Both the position numbers and the translations under genes were made by a program. A stretch of DNA of 64,000 bases from Capsulimonadaceae bacterium. GTDB taxonomy: Bacteria > Armatimonadota > Armatimonadia > Armatimonadales > Capsulimonadaceae. The number at the start of each line of letters is the position of its first letter. Within the stretch, counting starts at the first letter, position 1. Positions 5,230-58,720 of the stretch are shown piece after piece. The notes beneath the pieces were generated by a model. It had not been told where the DNA came from. It ran no database searches and worked only from the letters and a program-made list of their open reading frames with translations. The DNA is taken from positions 4,768,001 to 4,832,000 of the forward strand of contig OZ244065.1 of NCBI GenBank assembly GCA_965215505.1, in the 5' to 3' direction.

Positions 5230-5859
5230 CTACGGCAGGCCCTCCCGCCGGACGTGTGCCTCGCGGTAGTCGTTCAAGCGCCCCACGAACTCATCCGACG
5301 TCACCGCCATCAGCCCGTCGTAGATGATCAGCCGCCCCCGCACCCACTCCAGGCGCAGGGCGGCGGCCTTCAGCCAGGGCAGGCGCGGCAGGAACCCCGT
5401 GACGTCCCGGAGCATGAGGAACACCGGGCGCGGCACCGCGCCGCACCGGATCAGGCCGGGCGTGTCCCACGGGTAGGCGCGGGCGAGGTCCGGCCAGGGG
5501 ATGAGGCCGACCTGGTAGAAGGAGGCGTTGTCCACGAGGCCGTCGCGCCGGAATACCACGGCGGGCAGGTCGTCCCGCAGGCAGCGGCCCAGCGACAGCG
5601 CCCACCGCACGATGCACAGGACGCACGGGCAGTAGAAGACCAGGACCACGGCGAGTATGCCCCGCACCACCAGCCCGGACTGACCGTGCAGCACCAGCCC
5701 CTTGTGCAGAGTGCCGGACAGGACGCCGTTGCCGAGGACGTCCAGGATTGCCAGCCCGCCCGCCGACAGGATGACCGCGTGGAGGAACATCAGTCGCAGG
5801 TTTCCCCGGTCAAAAGGGATCGCTACCTCGTCCCCGCTCCTCATGTCCTCGTTTGTCAC
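5230..5859 (-). CDS. Hypothetical membrane protein
   Basis: GTG start after AGGAGG; two hydrophobic segments then GLVDNAS...GLIPWPDL. Confidence 0.6.
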   Translation of the reverse strand: MTNEDMRSGDEVAIPFDRGNLRLMFLHAVILSAGGLAILDVLGNGVLSGTLHKGLVLHGQSGLVVRGILAVVLVFYCPCVLCIVRWALSLGRCLRDDLPAVVFRRDGLVDNASFYQVGLIPWPDLARAYPWDTPGLIRCGAVPRPVFLMLRDVTGFLPRLPWLKAAALRLEWVRGRLIIYDGLMAVTSDEFVGRLNDYREAHVRREGLP

Positions 5860-5887
5860 CGTGAAGCCTCCTGGACTCAGAACATCA

Positions 5888-6100
5888 TCAGGGCGCGGCG
5901 GGGCGAGACATCTGCGACAATACCTCGTTGAGCATCGCACCGTAAATCCTGCCGCTTGGCTCGCCGGATGGCAGCGGCAGACTGTACCGCGTTGCCCGCG
6001 GCCCGACTCTGACGATCACGACCTCCTGCCACCCGGCAGGGCCGCCCCGGTCATCGCAGACTTCGACCAAAATATGGTCGCCGACTTCGTATGGATGCAT
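5888..6100 (-). CDS. Small hypothetical protein
   Basis: ATG at 6100 preceded by GGAG; packs between neighbouring genes. Confidence 0.45.
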   Translation of the reverse strand: MHPYEVGDHILVEVCDDRGGPAGWQEVVIVRVGPRATRYSLPLPSGEPSGRIYGAMLNEVLSQMSRPAAP

Positions 6101-6132
6101 CTCTTGCTCCGAGGACCACGCGCGGGGAGGGG

Positions 6133-6651
6133 TCAGGCCGGCTTCGCGCCAGGCTTGACGACGCGGGCCTTCCCGTCCGTCGTGATCGTCTGCGACAACT
6201 GCGTCTCCCGCCAAACAAGCCACGTCGGCCCGCTTTTCACCCAGACGCTCCGCCAAAGCCCGTCGAAAATCAGGGCGTGCGTCTTGTGGGTGCGGCGGCC
6301 GATGATATGTAAAACCGTATGCTCACGCGACAGAACGACCGCGCCCTTCGATGTGGCCTGGACCGTGAGGATCGTCGGCTCGCTTTCCATGGACTGGGAG
6401 TAGGAGAGCGACCTCCCGAGGTTTTGCTGTGCCTGCCGCTTGTCGTAGACGCCTCCCGAGATGTCGCGGCCCTGGAAGTCGTCCGCGTAGCCTGCCATGT
6501 ACCCCTTGACGTCCCTGTGGACCATCCTCTGCTCGCCCCGATGAACAGCGGCCTGGATCTGTTCTCTGACGCTGCCGACGCCGCCTGAAGCGGCGTGAGA
6601 CGATAACCCCCAAACGGTCAGCGCCACCATCGTCTTGACCACCTTGTGCAT
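6133..6651 (-). CDS. Secreted NTF2-like (DUF4440/SnoaL-like) protein
   Basis: Signal peptide; ...DVKGYMAGYADDF...RSVWVKSGPTWLVWRE pattern typical of NTF2-fold proteins. Confidence 0.65.
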   Translation of the reverse strand: MHKVVKTMVALTVWGLSSHAASGGVGSVREQIQAAVHRGEQRMVHRDVKGYMAGYADDFQGRDISGGVYDKRQAQQNLGRSLSYSQSMESEPTILTVQATSKGAVVLSREHTVLHIIGRRTHKTHALIFDGLWRSVWVKSGPTWLVWRETQLSQTITTDGKARVVKPGAKPA

Positions 6652-6849
6652 CAATCCCCCTCACGATGACAGCCGCCCATCTTCACATTGCGCGCCCGCG
6701 TGAACCAAAGGAAGCGGTTTCCGTTCGCCTGCATGGGCCGGGGGCTTGCCCCGGCACGGAGCGATGAAGACGAGCCACCGGGTCCCCACTGGAAACTCGG
6801 AAGGCTTTAGAACGCCGGACTCCAGGCAAACCCGATGCCTCGCCCTGCG

Positions 6850-6946
6850 GCCTCACAGCGAACCACCCGGCAACACCGTCTGTACAGCCGCGCGGACCCG
6901 CAGGAACAACGGCAGCAGTGGCGTCCGGCGCAGCGCGATGTTAGGC
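6850..6946 (-). repeat. attC site 1 (degenerate core GTGAGGC)
   Basis: GCCTCAC at 6850 ... GTGGCGTCCGGCGCAGCGC ... GTTAGGC at 6940. Confidence 0.7.
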
Positions 6947-6961
6947 CGACACCCGGAAGGC

Positions 6962-7195
6962 TTACTCCTCAACGCCCACGTCAAACGCCTGCGCCCGAAG
7001 CTCCTCCGAGAGTCGGTGGGCCGATGCAAGCGGGACACCCTCCCGGATCACCGTTCTGCCCGCATCCGTGCAGTCCGCCGCCATGTCCACGGCCTCCCGG
7101 ATTGAGCAGGAGAGGTGTTCCCGCAGGGCCTTGACGAGAAGGAGCAGGGGCCGTTCACTGCCGGGCATCCATCCCCGGAGTATGATCTTAGCCAT
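6962..7195 (-). CDS. Cassette ORF, small hypothetical protein (weak L7/L12 C-terminal-like pattern)
   Basis: LVKALREHLSCSIREAVDM; lies between attC2 and attC1. Confidence 0.6.
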   Translation of the reverse strand: MAKIILRGWMPGSERPLLLLVKALREHLSCSIREAVDMAADCTDAGRTVIREGVPLASAHRLSEELRAQAFDVGVEE

Positions 7196-7234
7196 CGTCA
7201 ACACTCCCGGAACACTCCCGGATCATGAGCAGCG

Positions 7235-7332
7235 GCCTGACGGCCGCGCCCTCCGGCGACACCGGCCCGCACAGCCAACCGATCCCACAGAGCAAAAGGA
7301 CAGGTGGCGTCCGGTGCAGCGCCGTGTTAGGC
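7235..7332 (-). repeat. attC site 2 (degenerate core GTCAGGC)
   Basis: GCCTGAC at 7235 ... CAGGTGGCGTCCGGTGCAGCGC ... GTTAGGC at 7326. Confidence 0.8.
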
Positions 7333-7560
7333 TGCTGGCTTGTCAGGCTTACGCCGCTGAAGGATTTTTCGGAGTGCCGTATGATACCCGCAAAAAGTCA
7401 CGGCCCATAAACCGAAATCCAGCCCTAGCTCACCGACATTCAACGGGCCGGAAAGGATATTGTAATGAAAGCCCGCTAACCGTTCTAGTAGCCGTGTAGT
7501 CACATAGGTCGCTACCAAAACAGCCCAGAACTTGCCATCTTGCCAAAACTTGCCGTTCAT
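7327..7560 (-). CDS. Cassette ORF, small membrane protein
   Basis: 77 aa, two hydrophobic segments; TAA stop inside the inverse core of attC2. Confidence 0.7.
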   Translation of the reverse strand: MNGKFWQDGKFWAVLVATYVTTRLLERLAGFHYNILSGPLNVGELGLDFGLWAVTFCGYHTALRKILQRRKPDKPAA

Positions 7561-7600
7561 AGTGATTTGTCTCCGTGCAAGAATAGCCTTTCACCCAGCG

Positions 7601-7698
7601 GTCTAACGGCTGCGCTCACCGGCGACGCCTGATTGCACAGCCGCTCGACCCCGCAGAACACAAGGACAGGTGGCGTCCGGTGCAGCGCTGTGTTAGGC
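7601..7698 (-). repeat. attC site 3
   Basis: GTCTAAC at 7601 ... GCTCACCGGCG ... CGTCCGGTGCAGC ... GTTAGGC at 7692. Confidence 0.88.
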
Positions 7699-7968
7699 CG
7701 CAGACTGGTCACCGTCATCGTGTATCACAGCCATTGGACAGGCAATCAGGGCTTCGTGACACTGACGCTCTTCCTCTTCTGTTTCTGGTTGCTTGTAAAT
7801 GAAATAGCTCCAGGAAACCCCGCCCTCTTCATTGTAACGAAACCCGCCCTCTTCATTGTAACGAAAGTTGTTTGGTGCAAGGTCGGCACAAATGCCATGG
7901 GCCAAGCAGCCTTCACAATCAATCCAATATTTGCCTGCTACGCTTTGCGGGTGCTTTTCGCCTTGCAT
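7693..7968 (-). CDS. Cassette ORF, single-cluster ferredoxin
   Basis: CLAHGIC...ACP (CxxHxxC...CP) and KQPETEEE motif; stop inside attC3 inverse core. Confidence 0.75.
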   Translation of the reverse strand: MQGEKHPQSVAGKYWIDCEGCLAHGICADLAPNNFRYNEEGGFRYNEEGGVSWSYFIYKQPETEEEERQCHEALIACPMAVIHDDGDQSAA

Positions 7969-8003
7969 TCTGTTTTCGCCTCAAGAGAGCCGTTCGCTCT
8001 GCG

Positions 8004-8102
8004 GCCTAACGGGGGCGCTCACCGGCGACACCGCCGCACTCGATTTGCGATACTAGCCACGACACCGGCAGCGGTGGCGTCCGGTGCAGCGCAGTGTTAG
8101 GC
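8004..8102 (-). repeat. attC site 4
   Basis: GCCTAAC at 8004 ... GTTAGGC at 8096 with conserved internal boxes. Confidence 0.9.
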
Positions 8103-18410: not shown

Positions 18411-19214
18411 ATGTCCACCAAACTCCAACTCAGCGGCCCGGAACAGGACCCGAAGCGCGACGAAGAACGGAAGGCCGAGCTGACCGAACACCTGGCCGAG
18501 CTGCGGACGCGCCTCATCCGCGCCTGCCTCTACGTCCTCTTCGGCATGGTCGCCGTTTACCTCCTCAGCAGTCAGATCGAGACGACGCTGATGGCCCCGA
18601 TCAACAAGGTCATCAACGCCCGCAAGGTCGTGGACGGGCAGACGCAGCTCCCGCCCTTTGCCTTCCACTCCTTCACCGACGGCTTCTTCCTGACTCTCCA
18701 GATCGCCACCGTGGGCGGCCTGATCGTCGCCCTGCCGTTCGTGATCCTGGAACTCTGGGGCTTCATCGCCCCCGCCCTGACGACGCACGAGAAGAAGGGC
18801 GTCTACTTCATCGCCCCCATGTCCGTCGTCCTGTTCCTCATGGGCCTGTCCTGCGCCTACCTCATCCTGCCCATGGCCGTCCATTGGTTCCTGAGTTACA
18901 TCCCGCCCGGCGCGGTCCTGATGCAGAACCCGCTGACCTACATCGTCTTCGTCGTCAAGCTCCTGCTCGTCTTCGGCCTGCTCTTCGAGCTGCCCGTCGT
19001 CCTCATGTTCCTCGGCAAGATCGGCATCATCAACTCCGCCCTGATGATCCAGTACTGGCGTCAGATCGCCGTCGCCCTCTTCACCCTGGCGATGGTCGTC
19101 GCCCCCTCCAATGACCCCGGCACCATGCTGGCACTCGCCATCCCGCTCACCCTGCTCTTCTTCGCCTCCATCGGCTTGGTCAAACTGGTCGAGCCGAAGG
19201 TCCAGCTAGACTAG
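18411..19214 (+). CDS. tatC: Twin-arginine translocase subunit TatC
   Basis: LTEHLAELRTRL, WGFIAPAL..HEK, FELP, multi-TM. Confidence 0.95.
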   Translation: MSTKLQLSGPEQDPKRDEERKAELTEHLAELRTRLIRACLYVLFGMVAVYLLSSQIETTLMAPINKVINARKVVDGQTQLPPFAFHSFTDGFFLTLQIATVGGLIVALPFVILELWGFIAPALTTHEKKGVYFIAPMSVVLFLMGLSCAYLILPMAVHWFLSYIPPGAVLMQNPLTYIVFVVKLLLVFGLLFELPVVLMFLGKIGIINSALMIQYWRQIAVALFTLAMVVAPSNDPGTMLALAIPLTLLFFASIGLVKLVEPKVQLD

Positions 19215-51769: not shown

Positions 51770-51850
51770 GGGCGCCGCTTGCCGCGCCCTCCTCATCTTT
51801 CCGGCCCTCCTCATCTTTCCAATCCCTCTTGGCACCCCCCGAAAAATAGA

Positions 51851-51908
51851 TGCTAGAAAATTAGCATTTTCCTTGACATCCTGCTCCCAATGTGCTAAAT
51901 TATTAGCA
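51851..51908 (+). promoter_or_regulatory. Promoter with two palindromic operators for the BlaI/BlaR1 operon
   Basis: TGCTAG-AAAA-TTAGCA (51851-51866) and TGCTAA-ATTA-TTAGCA (51893-51908); TTGACA (51873)-17 nt-TAAATT; ATG 6 nt after the -10 suggests a leaderless mRNA. Confidence 0.8.
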
Positions 51909-52294
51909 TGGCTACCGACACCGCCCTCAGCCGCCGCGAGCGGCAGATCATGGACATCATCTACCAGCAGGAGAAGGCGACCGCCGCCGACGTGCTGGCC
52001 GCCCTGCCCGACCCGCCCTCCTACTCCTCCGTGCGCGCTTTACTCGGCGTCCTGGAGTCGAAGGGCCACCTGCGGCACGTCAAGGACGGCGCGCGTTACG
52101 TCTACTCGCCCGTCCGGTCCCGACGTGGGGCGGCCAAGTCCGCCTTGCAGCAGGTCATGCAGACCTTCTTCGCCGGCTCGGTCGAGCGGACCGTCGCCAC
52201 CCTCCTGTCCGCCTCCGACGCGCCGCTGTCCGAGGAAGAATGCGAGCGCCTGTCGGCGCTCATTGACCGGGCGAAAGAAGGGGGCAAGAAATGA
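51908..52294 (+). CDS. BlaI/MecI/CopY family transcriptional repressor
   Basis: LSRRERQIMDIIY, SYSSVRALL..LE.KG, RYVY.P, FFAGS. Confidence 0.95.
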   Translation: MATDTALSRRERQIMDIIYQQEKATAADVLAALPDPPSYSSVRALLGVLESKGHLRHVKDGARYVYSPVRSRRGAAKSALQQVMQTFFAGSVERTVATLLSASDAPLSEEECERLSALIDRAKEGGKK

Positions 52295-54111
52295 GTGAAG
52301 TGCCTCCAGTCCTGACGTGGCTCCCCGTGCTGGGCAGCCTCGCTTTGAAAAGCCTGATCCTGTTCCTTGTCGCGGGCGCGGCCCTGCTCGCCCTGCGGCG
52401 GGCGTCCGCCTCGGCGCGGCACCTCGTCTGCCTCCTGGCGCTGGTGGGCCTGCTGGCCCTGCCTCTCCTGTCTCTGGCCCTGCCGGGCTGGCGGCTTGCG
52501 GTGCTGGCCCCGCCTGCCGCGCCGCCCGCACCCGCCGTGCCGTCTGTCGTTACGGTGCCGGTGCTTGTCCCTACGGAGACGGGAGCGCCGACGAAGGTGG
52601 TCCCCTTCGTGCCCCCGTCCGCCCGGCTCGCCCCCCTCCTGGCCCTGCCGACGCCCGCCCCTGCCCCGCGTCCCTTCCCCTGGCTGATCGCCCTGGCCGC
52701 CCTCTGGCTCGGCGGCGTCCTGATTGCCGTCCTGCGGCCCCTCCTCGGCCTGTGGGGTATCGCGCGGCTCTCCCAGGCCAGCGCCGCAGTCACAGACGCA
52801 TCCATCCTGGCCCAAGCCGCCGAATGCGCGTCCGCCCTTGGCATCAGCCAGGCACCCGCCTTGCGTCAGGCCGATGCCTCCGTCCCGATGACTTGGGGCT
52901 GGCATCGCCCCGTCGTCCTGCTGCCTGCCGAGGCGCGGGACTGGCCCGAGGGCCGCCTGCGAGCCGTCCTGCTGCACGAGCTGGCCCACGTCCGGCGGCG
53001 CGACTGGCTCTCCCACCGGCTGGCCGATGTCGTCTGCGCCCTCTACTGGTTCCACCCGCTCGCCTGGCTCACCGCCCGTCGCCTCAAAATGGAGAGCGAG
53101 ATCGCCTGTGACGACCTCGTCCTGACCTCCGGCGTCGCCGCCCCGGACTACGCCCGGCACCTGCTGGACGTCGCCCGCGCCCTGCGCCCCGCCCCCGCCC
53201 TCGTTCCCACCGCCGCCATCGCCATGGCGCGCACCGCCCGCATCGAAGGGAGACTGACCATGATCCTGGACACCACCCGCCCCCGCCGCGCCCTGACGCG
53301 CCGCGCCCTGCTGACGGTCCTCAGCCTCAGCGCCGCCGCCCTCGTCCCGCTCGCCGTCCTGCGGCTTGAAGCACGGGCACAGGCCGCGCCCGGCGTCATC
53401 CCCGCCCGGCACCTCACGACGCTCCATGTGACCACTGCCACCCCCACGATGGTTGCGGCAGGCGTCATGCCCATCCAGTTGGCGCGAGTCTACACTGACC
53501 TATGGGAACTTCACGGCCTCAGCCGTCGCCGTGTCCAGTTTGCCTTCCGGCTACCTGCTGCCGCGCGGGATGTCACGGTCAAGTATGCGCTGACCGGCAG
53601 CCTGTATTCTTCTTCGGACGGCACTTGGCCCTCGAAGATGCAGGGCACCAGCGGGCAGACAGAGGCACAGCTTAACGCCCAGACCGGCGGGGCGCGCATC
53701 GTGACTGCGACCTTCCCCTCGTCCGTCTCCAAGACCAATGTCCGCGTCAGCACCGCCTCCGGTCACTGGGAAAAGGAAGCCGCCGCCGCCCCGACCCGCT
53801 ACACCGGCTCCAGCGTCACGACCAGTCGCGGCACGTTCATCTTCAGCCCGGTGACGCCGGAAAAAGGCAACATCTGGGGGGTGACGATCACGACCGGCCA
53901 GCCGAAGGAAGACGTCCGCATCGTGGCTATAGACGCGCGCGGCCATGAACTGCTGCCCTCCACCATCGGCGATACGACCGCAGGCGGCCTGGACCAGATC
54001 ACCGCACGGTTCGCCGGTCTGCCCCTGCCGCAGATCAAGGAGTTCCGCGTGGAATCCCGCCCATTCCACTCCGTCGAGTTCAAAAACGTCGCCTTGCGGC
54101 CCGCGAAGTAG
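52291..54111 (+). CDS. BlaR1/MecR1-like M56 metallopeptidase with non-PBP C-terminal domain
   Basis: PMTWG..RPVVLLP, HELAHVRRRD, WFHPL.W, E.ACDD.V, YARHLL, MA...IEGRL.MIL. Confidence 0.93.
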   Translation: MSEVPPVLTWLPVLGSLALKSLILFLVAGAALLALRRASASARHLVCLLALVGLLALPLLSLALPGWRLAVLAPPAAPPAPAVPSVVTVPVLVPTETGAPTKVVPFVPPSARLAPLLALPTPAPAPRPFPWLIALAALWLGGVLIAVLRPLLGLWGIARLSQASAAVTDASILAQAAECASALGISQAPALRQADASVPMTWGWHRPVVLLPAEARDWPEGRLRAVLLHELAHVRRRDWLSHRLADVVCALYWFHPLAWLTARRLKMESEIACDDLVLTSGVAAPDYARHLLDVARALRPAPALVPTAAIAMARTARIEGRLTMILDTTRPRRALTRRALLTVLSLSAAALVPLAVLRLEARAQAAPGVIPARHLTTLHVTTATPTMVAAGVMPIQLARVYTDLWELHGLSRRRVQFAFRLPAAARDVTVKYALTGSLYSSSDGTWPSKMQGTSGQTEAQLNAQTGGARIVTATFPSSVSKTNVRVSTASGHWEKEAAAAPTRYTGSSVTTSRGTFIFSPVTPEKGNIWGVTITTGQPKEDVRIVAIDARGHELLPSTIGDTTAGGLDQITARFAGLPLPQIKEFRVESRPFHSVEFKNVALRPAK

Positions 54112-54148
54112 CCCTGCCCCATCAGGGAGCAGAGGCAGGAGACAGGCC

Positions 54149-55111
54149 ATGAAGCGCAAGCCGTATGAACTCGCCCTCTGGGTGGCCCTGCCGATGGCCC
54201 ACACGCCCCGCATCGAAGGAAGGCTACGAATGATCCTCGACGCTGGCCGCCCGCGCCGGACACTGACGCGGCGCGCTCTGCTCGTGTCGCTGGCCGCCGC
54301 GCTCGGGTGCGGAGTGCTGGCCACTTTGGAGCCTGGGAGGCGGGCGCAGGCGGCAGGCACCCCAACCCCGTGGAAGCAGACACTGGCGAACGGGATGACC
54401 GTCGAAGTTCTGGGCGTCTCAGACGCGCCGACGCGACAGCGGGGCGGCTGGTGGAGGCCGGACGGGTCGCCGCTGGCGGGGGCACCATTCGGACGGTATC
54501 TGGAGTCTCCAATCACGGGGCAGGACCGACGGGCTTTCGCCATGCGTGTCCTGCCGTCCCCAAGCGGCCCGCAGTGGGGCTTTCCCATTTATGAGGTCGC
54601 AGGGGCTGCTCTGGTGCGGACCAGTTCCTGGGTGATGATGTCCGATTCGACAAGGATGGTGGGCCTTGATATCGTTTCGGCGGGCGCCGACGCACTGCCG
54701 TCGCCAGGCACACTGCGCTGCGGTGTCGCGGCGGGGACGTGGGAGACGCTGAAATCCGCCAACGTCTCCATCCTCCCGGCGGGGGGCGGGTTCACCTTCC
54801 ATGGACACGCCGGCAGTGTTGTCTTCTCACGTCTGAGTCAGACGCGCGGGAGTGCCATGGTGACTATGAGTGACACTTTCCCGAACGGAGAAGGGGTGTC
54901 CCGAGTTGCGGCGCTGGATGCCTCAGGGAAGACTGTCGAAGGCGATTCCGATGGTGGGGCGGAGACCGGGGCGATGCGCCAGACCGTCATCGTCTTCAGG
55001 GGTATGCCATTAAGCCGCATCAAAGAGGTCCGCTTCCAGGCGCTGCCCTATCAGTGGGCGGAGTTCCGGGGGATCGCCCTGAAGCCGGGTGGCAGTGTGG
55101 CACACCGATGA
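54149..55111 (+). CDS. Headless BlaR1-type C-terminal module 1 (junction segment + TM + extracellular domain)
   Basis: AGGAG RBS; ALPMAHTPRIEGRLRMILDAGRPRRTLTRRALL...AQAA; C-terminus resembles that of the M56 protein. Confidence 0.8.
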   Translation: MKRKPYELALWVALPMAHTPRIEGRLRMILDAGRPRRTLTRRALLVSLAAALGCGVLATLEPGRRAQAAGTPTPWKQTLANGMTVEVLGVSDAPTRQRGGWWRPDGSPLAGAPFGRYLESPITGQDRRAFAMRVLPSPSGPQWGFPIYEVAGAALVRTSSWVMMSDSTRMVGLDIVSAGADALPSPGTLRCGVAAGTWETLKSANVSILPAGGGFTFHGHAGSVVFSRLSQTRGSAMVTMSDTFPNGEGVSRVAALDASGKTVEGDSDGGAETGAMRQTVIVFRGMPLSRIKEVRFQALPYQWAEFRGIALKPGGSVAHR

Positions 55112-55143
55112 GAGTCCCATTACACACGAAAGAAAGACTCGAC

Positions 55144-56661
55144 ATGCTCTCGACCGAAACCCGACGCCGCCTGCTCCCGCTCCTCGCGCTCGCCCCGCTG
55201 GCCTGCCTCTCCGGCATGGCCGGCGTGAAGGCGGACCCGGCCCGCCACCCCGCCAAGGAAGACACCTACACCATCACTTCAGTTCTGCGGGTGCTGCCGC
55301 CCGTGGACCCCGCCGCCATGAGCGACGACTTCCAGGACGTGCGCGTTCTGGCCCGAGACAAAGCCTCGGCTACGGTGGAAGTGACCTACTACCCGCTCTA
55401 CCAGCAGCCCGTCGGCGAGGACCCCGACTGGCGCAAGGACGACGCGGGCATGACCGCCTTCCTCCAGCCGACGCCCGCCGAGAACTGGGACGCCGCCATG
55501 CGCCGTGACCTGCTGGCACAGCTCAAGCAGGACGGCATTGACCCGGACGCCCTAACCGACAAGGCCCTCGTCGAGCGGGTCTCCCGCTGGGCCATGCACC
55601 GGGCACATGAGGCGAGCGCCTTCACGGTTTGGGACGTCTATTACCCGGACGGCAAGCCTACCGTTTTCCCCGCCCTGCGCGCGGCCTTCGACCAGCAGAA
55701 GCCCGCCCCGACCTGGACCGACCAGCAGATGTTCGACCAGGAGGCCCTGGGCAAATCCATGTTTTACAACAAGGTCCACGGCTCCTGCACGTCGTCCTCG
55801 ATCTATTTGACCACCATCTTCCGCGCCCTGGGCATCCCCACCCGCACCGTCCTGTGCATCCCGCCGTTCGACCCGAACGACGGCGCGCAGGCGTCCAAAT
55901 TCTACGCGGCCGTCCACGACAACGCCGTGCGCGAAACCGTCCGCGCCGCCCTGGACGGAATGGGAGGCTTCGCCAACCACCTGTTCAACGAGGTCTACGT
56001 CGGCCACCACTGGGTGCGCCTCAACTACGACCGGCTGGGCCAGCCGATCTTGGACCCCGACTATTTCGGCCTGCTGACGCACATCGCGACGAGCGCCGAC
56101 CTGAGCAAGACGCCGCTGGCGCAGACCTGGGGGCTGCGTTATGCTGAGGACGCGCCGGACCAGCCCAAGCTCTCCTCGGTCAACCCGTACATGCTGCTCT
56201 CCGTCAGCGACCACTTCGGCGCGAACGCCCACCTGGACAATCCCGCCGTCCCCATCGCCGAGCTACGGACGGCCACGATCACCGGGCTGCTGCCGAAAAC
56301 CTCGCCTGCCCTGCCCAAGTGGGTCGCAGACGACACCCCCAAAGACAGCGCGTTCGACTTCTTCATCGTCTACAAGGAATGGGTGCCCGGCTCCTACATG
56401 CAGATGCGCGCGTTCGGCAAGCGGGCCGCTCACGATTTCTTACTGACCGCGCCGGGCCGGCGGGATGTCAAGGTGCGGCTGAACGGCACGATGGACAGCG
56501 ATGGTGCCGGCACCTTCCAAGCTTTCGGGGCGCGCATCATGCCCGAAGACAAGGCGAAACTCGTTCCCGGCGTCGCCTACACGCTCACGCCGCAGAACAC
56601 CAGCGACACCTACCGCTGGGCCGTCACGCCCGGCGTGACTCTGACACTGCCCGCCAAATAG
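55144..56661 (+). CDS. Secreted transglutaminase-like protein
   Basis: GSCTSSS...FRALGIPTR and NHLFNEVYVG..WV motifs; TRRRLL signal-like N-terminus. Confidence 0.78.
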   Translation: MLSTETRRRLLPLLALAPLACLSGMAGVKADPARHPAKEDTYTITSVLRVLPPVDPAAMSDDFQDVRVLARDKASATVEVTYYPLYQQPVGEDPDWRKDDAGMTAFLQPTPAENWDAAMRRDLLAQLKQDGIDPDALTDKALVERVSRWAMHRAHEASAFTVWDVYYPDGKPTVFPALRAAFDQQKPAPTWTDQQMFDQEALGKSMFYNKVHGSCTSSSIYLTTIFRALGIPTRTVLCIPPFDPNDGAQASKFYAAVHDNAVRETVRAALDGMGGFANHLFNEVYVGHHWVRLNYDRLGQPILDPDYFGLLTHIATSADLSKTPLAQTWGLRYAEDAPDQPKLSSVNPYMLLSVSDHFGANAHLDNPAVPIAELRTATITGLLPKTSPALPKWVADDTPKDSAFDFFIVYKEWVPGSYMQMRAFGKRAAHDFLLTAPGRRDVKVRLNGTMDSDGAGTFQAFGARIMPEDKAKLVPGVAYTLTPQNTSDTYRWAVTPGVTLTLPAK

Positions 56662-56688
56662 CCGGAGCCGGGCACGGAAAGGCCGACC

Positions 56689-57972
56689 ATGACACACAAA
56701 CTGACGCCTTTGGACCTCGCGCTGTGGGCCGCCCTGCCGATGGCCCACACTTCGCGCATCGAAGGGAGGCTCCAAATGATCCTGGACCGCACCCGCCCGC
56801 GACGCGCCTTGACGCGCCGGTTCCTGCTGACTGCGCTCGGCCTCGGGGCCGCCGCCCTCGTCCCGCTGGCGATGCTGCGGCCCGCCGCACGGGCGCAGGC
56901 CGCTGACACGCCGCTTAAGCATCACATGACCAGGGCCACGACGCGGGTGTCGGCGGTCAGTGCCGTCCCCGGCGAGTTCGACGCCATGCAGCTTGTCGCC
57001 GAGGGGCGGTCACTCACGCCCCGCGCGGCGGCGGATTTGGAGCGGGCACTGACGCTGCACCCGGACGATTACGCCGCCCACATCCGGCTCCTCGGCTATT
57101 ACGGGAGGCAGCAGTACGAGCCAGGTTTCGGGAGAGCGGCTTACCAAAGGCAGGTGTTCTGGTTCATCCAGAACCACCCGGAGTCGGTGCTGGCGGGGAC
57201 GCCCAACATGGGGCTGACCAGGAGCATCGACGCGGCTGCCTTTGAAGAGGGGAAGACGCTCTGGCTGGCGCAGATTTCCAAACAGCCGACCAACACCGCC
57301 CTCCTCGGCAAAGCCGCCGACTACTGCCTGCTCTCCGATAACCAAGCGGCGGAACGGCTGCTGCGGCAGGCGGAAGCCCTGGAACCGAAAGACGCGCAAT
57401 GGCCCGACAAGCTGGGCCACCTCTATCACTTGCAGGGAGAGGCGCGAACCGCATCCGCCGGTGACAGCCGCCTCTGGGCACAGAAAGCACTCGCCGAGTT
57501 CGAAGCCGCCGCCGAGGTCTCGACGAACAAAACGCTCCAGCACAGCACATCAGCCGATCTCGCGGTGACGGCCTTCGACGCGGGCGACTATGACAAGGCC
57601 CACCGCTACGCCGCCGACTTGTTGCTGCGCGGCCAGAACAAAGAAGGTCAGAGCCTTGACCCGAGCGACGATCTGCATCACGCCAACCTGATCCTGGGCC
57701 TTCTGGCCCTGCGCGACGGTGACACCGCCGGGGCGGAAGCGCATTTGCTGGCGATGGGCCGCGTCTCCGGCTCGCCGGTTCTAGGCTCGTTCGGCCCCAA
57801 CATGCGGCTCGCCCAGGAGTTGCTGAAAGCGGGGAGACGCGAGGCCGTGCTGGCCTACTTCGATGAGTGCGCTAAATTCTGGGCGTTCGACCGTGGGGCG
57901 AAGCTGAAGCAATGGAAATCGCAAGTCAAGAAGGGCGAAGTGCCTGACTTCGGCGGCAACCTCGTCTACTGA
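56689..57972 (+). CDS. Headless BlaR1-type C-terminal module 2 with TPR-like helical extracellular domain
   Basis: ALPMAHTSRIEGRLQMILDRTRPRRALTRRFLL...AQAA; helical repeats; SFGPNMRLA...PDFGGNL end. Confidence 0.8.
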   Translation: MTHKLTPLDLALWAALPMAHTSRIEGRLQMILDRTRPRRALTRRFLLTALGLGAAALVPLAMLRPAARAQAADTPLKHHMTRATTRVSAVSAVPGEFDAMQLVAEGRSLTPRAAADLERALTLHPDDYAAHIRLLGYYGRQQYEPGFGRAAYQRQVFWFIQNHPESVLAGTPNMGLTRSIDAAAFEEGKTLWLAQISKQPTNTALLGKAADYCLLSDNQAAERLLRQAEALEPKDAQWPDKLGHLYHLQGEARTASAGDSRLWAQKALAEFEAAAEVSTNKTLQHSTSADLAVTAFDAGDYDKAHRYAADLLLRGQNKEGQSLDPSDDLHHANLILGLLALRDGDTAGAEAHLLAMGRVSGSPVLGSFGPNMRLAQELLKAGRREAVLAYFDECAKFWAFDRGAKLKQWKSQVKKGEVPDFGGNLVY

Positions 57973-58032: not shown

Positions 58033-58305
58033 CTAATTCGCGGGTACGAAAAGCACCATCAGATGCTCCCGCTCCTTGATCTCGTCTTCTATGTCGGTGA
58101 GTAGATCGTAATACTCATAGGCGCGCATCTTCCCGGCTTGCAGCCGGATGGGGATGTACCACCAGCCTTCTTCCAAATGTAGCGCCTCCTCAAGAATTTC
58201 CGGCGCGGTTTCGCCGATGGGGTTGTGTTCCAGGTAAGGGCGGACACGCCCCACGATTTCCTGCGCGACGTTTTCCAGATCGTTCCCCGTGGTCATTGTT
58301 GCCAT
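58033..58305 (-). CDS. Small acidic hypothetical protein coupled to the HEPN gene
   Basis: Starts 1 nt after the HEPN stop; GGGAGG RBS. Confidence 0.7.
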   Translation of the reverse strand: MATMTTGNDLENVAQEIVGRVRPYLEHNPIGETAPEILEEALHLEEGWWYIPIRLQAGKMRAYEYYDLLTDIEDEIKEREHLMVLFVPAN

Positions 58306-58306
58306 G

Positions 58307-58720
58307 TCAGATCTCCTCCCCGCGCTCCACTCCTAATAGCTGTAGGACTCGGCCCAAGTCACGCGCCGATCTCTTGGCTGCTGCCAGATCCACAATGGCT
58401 GTTGCGACATAGTCCGCTTCGGCACGCCCCCGGTATAACCGCCGCAACGCCTTGTTGATCTCAAAACGTGATACCAGTGAGAGCGTCGTCAAGTTGTTGA
58501 GGACGTAGCCGGGCAATCCGGCGTGTCCAGGATTGTTGCCGCCGTACCCAAGTGTGATCCCCTGCCGGACGAGCGCCGACGTGATGGCTGAGTACGCCGC
58601 GTAGTAGGCCCGGCTCACACTGCTCCGGTAGCATTCCACTTCCAGCAGGCGCTGGGCCGCTTTGCGGCTGTCCCGGCTGATCGCCCGCCACCGCGCCGCC
58701 TCTTCTTCCCGTGTCGGCAT
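58307..58720 (-). CDS. HEPN domain protein
   Basis: SVSRAYYAAY...H...LYRGRAEADY. Confidence 0.85.
   Translation of the reverse strand: MPTREEEAARWRAISRDSRKAAQRLLEVECYRSSVSRAYYAAYSAITSALVRQGITLGYGGNNPGHAGLPGYVLNNLTTLSLVSRFEINKALRRLYRGRAEADYVATAIVDLAAAKRSARDLGRVLQLLGVERGEEI

Follow-up and report, generated by a model that had tools for sequence, protein, structure and literature searches.

We describe here five closely packed genes on the + strand (51908-57972) of a 64-kb window, by which we mean the whole stretch of 64,000 nt that was analysed, corresponding to positions 4768001-4832000 of the single-contig, 6.18-Mb genome (G+C 66.5%) of a Capsulimonadaceae bacterium. The first gene encodes a blaI-type repressor of 128 aa (51908-52294; PF03965 at 6e-28), and the second, whose start overlaps the blaI stop by 4 nt, encodes a full-length, BlaR1-like M56 protein of 606 aa (52291-54111). 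There follow a gene for a protein that we call HL1 (320 aa, 54149-55111), a gene for a transglutaminase-core protein (55144-56661) and a gene for HL2 (427 aa, 56689-57972). HL stands for headless: both proteins begin with a copy of the segment that leads from the peptidase core of the M56 protein into its ectodomain, and both are without the core itself.

The M56 protein matches PF05569 over aa 129-325 (7e-29; 101 bits against a cut-off of 31). Its gluzincin residues H229, E230, H233, E270 and D274 (HExxH at aa 229-233, 52975-52989) align with residues 201, 202, 205, 242 and 246 of Staphylococcus aureus BlaR1 and are invariant across 17 M56 orthologues, and the gene adjoins a BlaI/MecI-type repressor. 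The protein is not a BlaR1 in the strict sense, as it reaches only 94 of the 400 bits required by the NCBIfam model blaR1_generic, in a match confined to aa 135-341. No Pfam domain of any kind was matched by aa 372-606, for which the structural model shows beta-sandwiches. By sequence it is a Pfam M56 member and a BlaR1-like transducer whose beta-rich ectodomain is not that of a penicillin-binding protein. The genome holds 8 M56 genes, each adjoining a blaI-type gene, and headless partners occur at this pair only.

The junction of the M56 protein (aa 308-366, 53212-53388) comprises the stretch AAIAM, a helix α9 with the invariant Arg321, an RR motif, the transmembrane (TM) helix TM4 and an AxA-like c-region. 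In a three-way alignment M312 to A366 (the end is approximate) corresponds to HL1 aa 16-70 and to HL2 aa 18-72; together with the leader that precedes it, the module occupies aa 1-70 of HL1 (54149-54358) and aa 1-72 of HL2 (56689-56904). A profile of the shared block scores the three window copies at 114-119 bits (E ~1e-33), and the rest of the genome yields just 3 weak matches (22-35 bits), all of them in further full-length M56 genes; a chance or low-complexity similarity is ruled out by these genome-wide scores. Neither headless protein shows HExxH, PF05569 or an NCBIfam match to a peptidase core. With the PF05569 region they share about the last 15 profile positions' worth (α9) only, and being without the core they are not M56 members. 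Alignment and profile thus confirm a first-pass annotation of this DNA that had singled out the two genes as carrying an M56-like junction without HExxH. It had also described their ectodomains as different, which they are. HL1, for which there is no Pfam or NCBIfam match at all, has an ectodomain that is predicted to fold into two beta-sandwich domains (predicted local distance difference test, pLDDT, ~90) and that shares 28% identity over 144 aa (E 3e-12) with the C-terminus of M56, its paralogue; a fold search with the HL1 model found nothing in the PDB at E<=1e-3 and returned no more than weak rows of the tandem Ig-like kind. HL2 is marginally tetratricopeptide repeat (TPR)-like, with PF13428 (TPR_14) at 24.0 bits against a cut-off of 23.5 and PF13432 below its cut-off.

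The two genes do not look like debris. Each has its own putative ribosome-binding site, as the first-pass annotation had it, in the form of Shine-Dalgarno (SD)-like motifs before the ATG (AGGAG, 8 nt upstream, for HL1; GGAAAGG for HL2). The gaps to the preceding stop codons measure 37 nt (HL1) and 27 nt (HL2) and therefore leave no room for a decayed peptidase, which that annotation had asked to be looked for upstream and which was not found. The three DNA copies of the junction differ at many synonymous positions (mean column identity 78%), which rules out recent gene conversion as the source of their similarity; judged from these differences, the copies are old and have been kept alike at the protein level.

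The headless proteins also share a leader, LALW.ALPMAH, at a place where the M56 protein reads AAIAMART, so that the claim of a leader private to the headless pair is upheld by the alignment. Over 20 HL modules the invariant residues are W13, L16, P17, M18, E25, R27, L32 and R43. Met-Ala-x-Thr, the Arg and a Leu are common to HL and M56 proteins, and the HL proteins add a Trp and Leu-Pro where M56 has Ala-Ile-Ala. Matches to the module profile start at position 2-4 in HL proteins and at position 9-14, mostly 13-14, in M56 proteins. For nine leader codons of the 20 HL genes the pairwise differences are 0.128, 0.115 and 0.362 at codon positions 1, 2 and 3, and this threefold third-position excess argues for purifying selection on a translated leader. 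As far as codon patterns can tell, the leader is a translated and HL-specific feature. The public gene model for HL2 (P0053, 398 aa) starts instead at the internal Met of MILD; we favour the upstream start because the leader codons are conserved at the codon level.

The internal Met has a peculiarity of its own. In HL2 a purine-rich run of rare codons, GAA-GGG-AGG (Glu25-Gly26-Arg27), is followed by the ATG of Met30 (56761-56778, + strand) and resembles an SD-directed internal start. Equivalent runs with an ATG lie on the same strand in M56 (53245-53262) and HL1 (54215-54232), and at the same place in loci L013-L030 of relatives. The Glu codon of this α9 Glu-x-Arg is GAA in 15 of 17 M56 genes (AAA in the other two) and in 20/20 HL genes, and the Arg codon is a rare AGA or AGG in 15/17 M56 and 18/20 HL genes; genome-wide, Glu is encoded by GAA in 25% of cases and Arg by AGR in 7%. 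The run lies 6-9 nt before the ATG, which is kept in 17/17 M56 genes. Since an SD-like run precedes that ATG, public gene models start there (6 such proteins). This suggests a nucleotide-level constraint in α9, for instance an internal start for a leaderless short form or, alternatively, a programmed pause before the TM helix.

Distribution and exchange of the headless modules

A search with HL2 aa 1-75 of a collection of 5.8 billion proteins gave 61 matches, of which two (600 and 648 aa) carry PF05569 and the rest are 250-545 aa long. The matched sequences have a short basic stretch, the leader, an α9-like helix, the RR motif, a TM helix and a basic Ala-rich exit, and then varied C-terminal parts. 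A profile of the 20 modules (A2), run against 1.84 billion representatives, returned 1456 matches at E<=1e-3 and 104 at E<=1e-10. Among the 192 proteins examined, the leader is the same in 87 HL proteins and a variant in 23 more, and a further 6 HL proteins have late start calls; 70 are full M56 proteins, 3 truncated fragments and 3 others. The headless architecture is found in ~110 database proteins, and the leader, whose conservation elsewhere the first-pass annotation had made a touchstone, is present in ~87 other proteins. Some of the variant leaders form a second class, where the Trp stands further from Leu-Pro-Met; a search of the phylum with one such protein (P0129) matched 9 of 301 genomes at E<=1e-8, all in the families f1 and f2 and mostly via the ectodomains, and says nothing on how the class is spread beyond the family. 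The module itself has matches in 21 of 23 other genomes of the same genus, in the one sister-genus genome not at all (0/1) and, weakly, in 4 of 16 genomes of the next family. Scanning genome contigs for the leader pattern yielded 15 loci, all in records labelled Armatimonadota except one. The exception is a contig (L035/G018) labelled as a Janthinobacterium lividum metagenome-assembled genome (MAG) and carrying a Capsulimonadaceae-type blaI-M56-HL locus, which is likely a binning or labelling error.

We compared 18 loci of relatives (picked for having matches, from close kin, and with heuristic gene calls), of which 16 carry 1-3 HL genes. The HL genes lie directly downstream of the blaI-M56 pair, on the same strand and contig, in 14 of these 16 loci; the other two are broken by a contig end. 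All HL frames seen are open. A 90-aa open reading frame (ORF), a 137-aa HEPN protein and a 336-aa ORF recur as flanking genes, which suggests that the locus is orthologous across the relatives. Taken at the level of sequence, the headless proteins are a conserved family and not products of decay.

Some unusual gene structures were seen. One locus (L023, G009; 5958-8045) has a 696-aa frame made of an HL gene and an in-frame second module without leader, and in the database protein P0067 (843 aa) the frame of an M56 protein runs on past its ectodomain into a complete HL start; these read-through fusions could be due to stop-codon loss or assembly error, or could be real fusions. In another locus (L015, G015; 5781-7633) the M56 gene encodes no more than ~113 aa past the junction, and a distinct ORF of 138 aa stands between it and two HL genes; the ectodomain may be frameshifted here, or the MAG may contain a sequencing error.

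The ectodomains are not tied to one architecture. In three relatives (G013, G017 and G016) the TPR ectodomain of HL2 is matched by the C-terminus of the full-length M56 protein, at 52, 48 and 44% identity respectively (E 3e-124 to 2e-50), and it is mostly the beta-rich type that is headless there; the single HL ectodomain of G013 matched neither type. All three ectodomain types of the window were found in the database both headless and fused to M56. For example, the HL1 type is carried by the M56 proteins P0060 and P0118 and the HL2 type by P0141 and P0140, and the M56 type is headless in P0012, P0034 and P0076.

Exchange between the two kinds of gene is visible in the M56 chimera of G019. Taken in windows of 30 residues, its aa 132-341 show 80-97% identity to the M56 core of G001; its aa 318-650 are 71% identical overall to an HL protein of G005, with the crossover within α9, and a second HL-type domain follows that is 58% identical to an HL protein of G015. 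In a tree of 66 shared junction columns M56 and HL sequences are intermixed by lineage, which requires 6 changes between the two states; the Shimodaira-Hasegawa-like approximate likelihood-ratio test (SH-aLRT) supports one mixed clade at 99%, and most forks are left open by the few columns.

A nearer case comes from public sequencing runs. A 4940-nt contig of run X4 differs from the window at 27 of 2235 nt in its blaI-M56 part and at 60 of 1759 nt in its transglutaminase-HL2 part, and between flanks that are ~98-99% identical the HL1 body (54164-55130) is replaced, starting at codon 5-6 of HL1, by ~946 nt of other sequence. The replacement includes a stretch like the HL2 junction and another like the HL2 3' end. 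In runs X4-X6 (three runs, two studies) the read depth over 54336-55147 is zero or very low (0-4.7). The difference in the HL1 slot looks like strain-level turnover of a cassette. The survey of joints covered contigs of 4 DNA runs at 85% likeness, and the 4940-nt contig is the only one we have used. Many short joints that link one junction copy to another (for example 53312->54173 and 53312->54368) were considered as recombinants and discounted, their sides being 20-53 nt long, the sequences repeats and the data metagenomes.

As regards expression, we found no convincing + strand terminator-like site within the cluster (the sole candidate, at 54651 inside HL1, is weak), and a single operon, with the HL genes co-transcribed with blaI and M56 from one promoter, is therefore likely. 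A promoter-like site, TTGACA-17-TAAATT, matches the consensus at 10 of 12 positions (51873-51901, + strand), its end falling 7 nt short of the blaI ATG. The transcript of blaI may have next to no leader. Two 18-bp dyads flank the site on the same strand, ATGCTA-N6-TAGCAT at 51850-51867 and GTGCTA-N6-TAGCAT at 51892-51909, the second overlapping both the -10 element and the blaI ATG, and both are candidate BlaI operators.

As for the neighbouring genes, the transglutaminase-core protein between HL1 and HL2 (PF01841 at 2.9e-07; its start is uncertain, the ORF opening at 55054) has a signal-peptide-like N-terminus with a Cys and is kept in the related-strain contig of X4. Just downstream of HL2, on the - strand at 58033-58720, lie a 90-aa ORF and a 137-aa HEPN protein (PF05168 at 2.4e-07), possibly a toxin-antitoxin-like pair; ORFs of the same sizes occupy the same place in relatives (e.g., L013, L014 and L016).

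The BlaR1 framework and a modelled complex

The cryo-EM study PMC9834060 provides the structural framework. In S. aureus BlaR1 the loop 271-289 between α8 and α9 sits in the active site and is cut at Ser283/Phe284, a bulky hydrophobic residue being preferred at P1'. The protomers of the BlaR1 dimer exchange α9 together with the terminal TM helix α10 in a domain swap; the exchanged α9 carries Arg294', which pairs in trans with Asp246 of the other chain. The loop in the cleft, whether intact or cleaved, is incompatible with BlaI binding. A phmmer alignment of the window M56 protein (P0002, aa 192-280) with BlaR1 aa 162-252 (8EXP/8EXS) places HExxH 201 on 229, E242 on E270 and D246 on D274, a constant offset of 28, which if extended puts the P1' Phe284 on Met312 and Arg293/294 on Arg321. 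The invariant Met312 meets Phe284 by spacing only; the alignment itself ends at aa 280, and a direct residue mapping of the junction on solved BlaR1 by sequence or profile failed for that reason. Across the 17 M56 orthologues the junction residues A309, I310, M312, A313, T315, R321 and L326 are invariant. By analogy we infer that AAIAM is the autocleavage site of the M56 protein and Met312 its P1' residue. The monomer model of the full M56 protein has pLDDT <50 at aa 304-313 and ~45-61 through α9 and TM4, as a swapped element might be expected to give.

With this offset, the HL module would match two parts of BlaR1, the P-side of its autocleavage loop and the swapped element made of α9 and the final TM helix, and would include the P1' Met and the trans-acting Arg. 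The first-pass annotation had seen in the headless proteins mimics of the C-terminal cleavage product. For the α9/TM element this stands, but ~8 conserved P-side residues are present as well, and the HL proteins would for that reason mimic the uncleaved substrate loop with the swapped α9/TM and not just the product.

A structural model of the complex was made from M56 aa 1-306, that is without its own loop, α9 and TM4 (alignment A4), and HL2 aa 1-75 (alignment A2). The two were docked with an interaction prediction score from aligned errors (ipSAE) of 0.65 in 3/3 runs, the best of 3 controls reaching 0.01, with >=94% contact agreement between runs and a partner pLDDT of >=73. Contacts on HL2 involve residues 10-21 (the leader), 23-24, 27-28, 30-32 and the TM helix, and on the core residues 194-202 (the edge strand), 226, 229, 230, 233 (HExxH), 270, 271, 274-276 and TM helices. 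The modelled arrangement reproduces that of BlaR1, the HL2 leader lying at the HExxH site and Arg27 at Asp274, with an expected error of 1.4-1.6 Å between Arg27 and core residues 270/271/274. The docking of an HL N-terminus on the peptidase core, which had been proposed for modelling, is thus predicted; what the complex model shows is compatibility, not binding.

What the headless proteins may do

We consider it about an even bet (a probability of roughly 0.5) that HL1 and HL2 are alternative sensor subunits that dock in trans and whose junction repeats also drive the shuffling of ectodomain cassettes. In that case each would be the C-terminal element of a BlaR1-type receptor as a protein in its own right, made up of a substrate-loop-like leader, α9, the last TM helix and an extracytoplasmic domain. 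An HL protein would insert N-in/C-out, its α9 and TM helix filling the place of BlaR1's swapped α9'/α10', its leader (the Trp and Leu-Pro-Met) lying in the M56 substrate cleft and its invariant Arg pairing with Asp274. The ectodomain, beta-sandwich or TPR, would then gate the access of BlaI to the protease, such that one protease/repressor switch could take several inputs. The anatomy, conservation, synteny and chimeras have been observed and the complex model is supportive; expression, docking in cells, any cleavage at Pro-Met and the effect on BlaI are inferred. The additional invariant hydrophobics of the leader (Trp and Leu-Pro) may reflect the need of a non-tethered ligand that competes with a tethered loop. 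Since a given ectodomain is found now fused, now free in the course of evolution, the free form presumably does the sensing job too. The junction, being repeated in direct orientation, may also be a recombination site, which over evolutionary time would move ectodomains between M56 and HL genes. Two ideas of the first-pass annotation are met here: that of alternative sensors in trans gains support from the complex model and from ectodomains found both fused and headless, and that of recombinational domain swapping holds on the evolutionary scale (the G019 chimera, the intermixed junctions and the HL1 slot of X4), with nothing to show that the swapping is programmed.

A number of points weigh against this proposal. 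The lineage-wise likeness of M56 and HL junctions could come from recombination rather than from co-evolving contact surfaces. The M56 protein's own tethered loop, α9 and TM helix should out-compete a partner in trans unless autocleavage or heterodimerisation frees the site, and the docking model does not account for the HL:M56 stoichiometry. The modelled complex resembles the rejoining of the halves of a split protein, and its score may reflect a likeness to solved BlaR1 (the 8EXP family). Of the solved complexes used for calibration 116 of 157 attained the ipSAE mark, as did 2 of 215 mismatched pairs, and these counts are only rough because self-built alignments were used. As both the phmmer and the profile alignments to BlaR1 stop at aa 280, the P1' and Arg assignments depend on constant spacing and the model. 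Finally, the loci compared come from close kin and were picked for having matches, and two of them (G008 and G019) have an M56 gene without any HL gene.

A related and more elaborate scheme, which we regard as tentative and on balance unlikely, has swapping at two levels. After autocleavage the core would shed its own α9, TM helix and ectodomain and take up HL modules, and the junction would move cassettes at the DNA level. The HL leader could then re-create the substrate loop and so re-wire the switch to different extracellular cues, and the rare-codon run and ATG in α9 could yield leaderless short forms from every gene, M56 included.

Alternatively, the HL proteins might dock and only inhibit, as pseudo-substrates or decoys, either because a leader with Pro at P1 plugs the M56 site or because the HL protein caps the swapped interface. 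The published incompatibility of the occupied BlaR1 cleft with BlaI binding (PMC9834060) would fit, as would the predicted position of the HL leader at the HExxH site, and the HL-specific invariants Trp13, Leu16 and Pro17 would suit a tighter trans ligand. Mere inhibition, however, would not call for ectodomains that are so large, varied and well conserved and that can be exchanged with the receptor's own, and a Pro before the Met is also present in full-length M56 proteins of other lineages and is hence not an HL-specific block to cleavage. We think this improbable.

To the view that the HL genes are recombination cassettes or by-products, a reservoir of ectodomain DNA arising from easy tandem partial duplication and encoding proteins without a role of their own, we likewise assign a low probability. 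The chimeric M56 gene of G019, the grouping of M56 and HL junctions by lineage and the closely related strain whose HL1 slot holds another gene body all speak for it. Yet silent copies would not retain a start codon, an SD-like site and an invariant private leader with its third-position excess, and the frames are open throughout and the window copies not recently homogenised.

The headless proteins could also be exported, as secreted or periplasmic proteins, by means of a borrowed twin-arginine translocation (Tat) or general secretory (Sec) signal with a moderately hydrophobic h-region, the long n-region being a relic or, as the first-pass annotation had suggested, being clipped by M56 to license export. 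An RR motif does precede the TM helix (by alignment reading, R43 is invariant and the second Arg present in 17 of 20 HL rows), a basic Pro/Ala-x-Ala-Gln stretch follows it in HL and M56 proteins, an S/T-R-R-x-F/L-L-type motif is visible by eye in the alignments of both, and the genome encodes TatC (181 bits). These Tat-like features are found equally on TM4 of the full-length M56 protein, a polytopic protease in which release of the ectodomain would uncouple sensing; moreover, conservation is strongest in the leader and α9 (W13, LPM, E25 and R27), not in the RR motif or h-region, whereas signal n-regions normally vary. Such an export role seems to us doubtful. The sole TatC match of the genome lies at ~18486-19145 (4786486-4787145) in the same window as the RR modules, which is probably coincidence. 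Least probable of all is a proteolytic relay in which M56 on activation cuts HL at Pro-Met and so changes its turnover or release, making the HL proteins outputs and not inputs: the leader does provide P-side residues and a Met at the presumed P1', like the receptor's own loop, but the cut would remove only ~17 residues and leave a product of the same form as the autocleaved receptor fragment, with no obvious cytoplasmic output domain, and the system's known output, BlaI, is already encoded in the operon.

We note that BlaR1/MecR1 signalling underlies staphylococcal beta-lactam resistance, and that the way in which autocleavage, domain swap and sensor communicate is still debated. A receptor that has apparently been split at its autocleavage loop, both parts being kept as genes, would offer a natural split system for the trans function of α9, TM helix and sensor, and one that also bears on the role of the loop in the active site. 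If the proposal of trans-docking sensors is true, it describes a compact route by which several signals enter one switch of regulated proteolysis. Environmental phyla have many M56/BlaI pairs, most of them unexplained (there are 8 pairs in this genome), and sensors acting in trans could help to explain them. In addition, the ~110 proteins, so far unannotated, gain a tentative placement.

Comparison with known systems

Two well-known arrangements resemble parts of what we describe. In the pilE/pilS system of Neisseria, truncated nearby copies without the 5' part recombine with the expressed gene via a conserved junction. The HL genes differ in having their own start, an SD-like site and a translated leader, and recombination is seen here only between genomes. 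The second arrangement is that of polytopic proteins inserted by both Sec and Tat, with twin arginines before the last TM helix, basic residues after it and a folded C-terminal domain that is exported. The conserved cytoplasmic helix and leader of the HL and M56 proteins are not features of that class, and the Tat-likeness reported here is read from sequence motifs.

The closest relatives are the BlaR1 and MecR1 receptors of S. aureus (8EXP/8EXQ/8EXR/8EXS/8EXT; PMC9834060), with which the window system shares a repressor gene beside an HExxH/E/D gluzincin and whose landmarks lie at offset 28 in the window M56 protein. Unlike BlaR1 and MecR1, the window proteins have beta-sandwich or TPR ectodomains and no penicillin-binding sensor, and the window has the swapped element also as separate genes with a private leader; the accessible text of PMC9834060 describes no free-standing partner for BlaR1. 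Our search of the literature, with subscription journals and supplements lying outside it, found no description of headless BlaR1-type (α9/TM/sensor) modules, and for free-standing modules beside BlaI-M56 the sources accessible to us have only the converse in print, namely sensor-less BlaR cores. According to bioRxiv 10.64898/2026.08.03.742534, such 'atypical' BlaR proteins occur in Mycobacterium tuberculosis, M. abscessus and, as PvmS, in Pseudomonas aeruginosa. They show that core and sensor are separable, and that BlaI/BlaR pairs regulate beyond beta-lactam resistance. The atypical BlaR proteins are cores without a sensor, as far as that account goes, whereas the window presents sensors with α9 and TM helix and without a core, standing beside a complete receptor.

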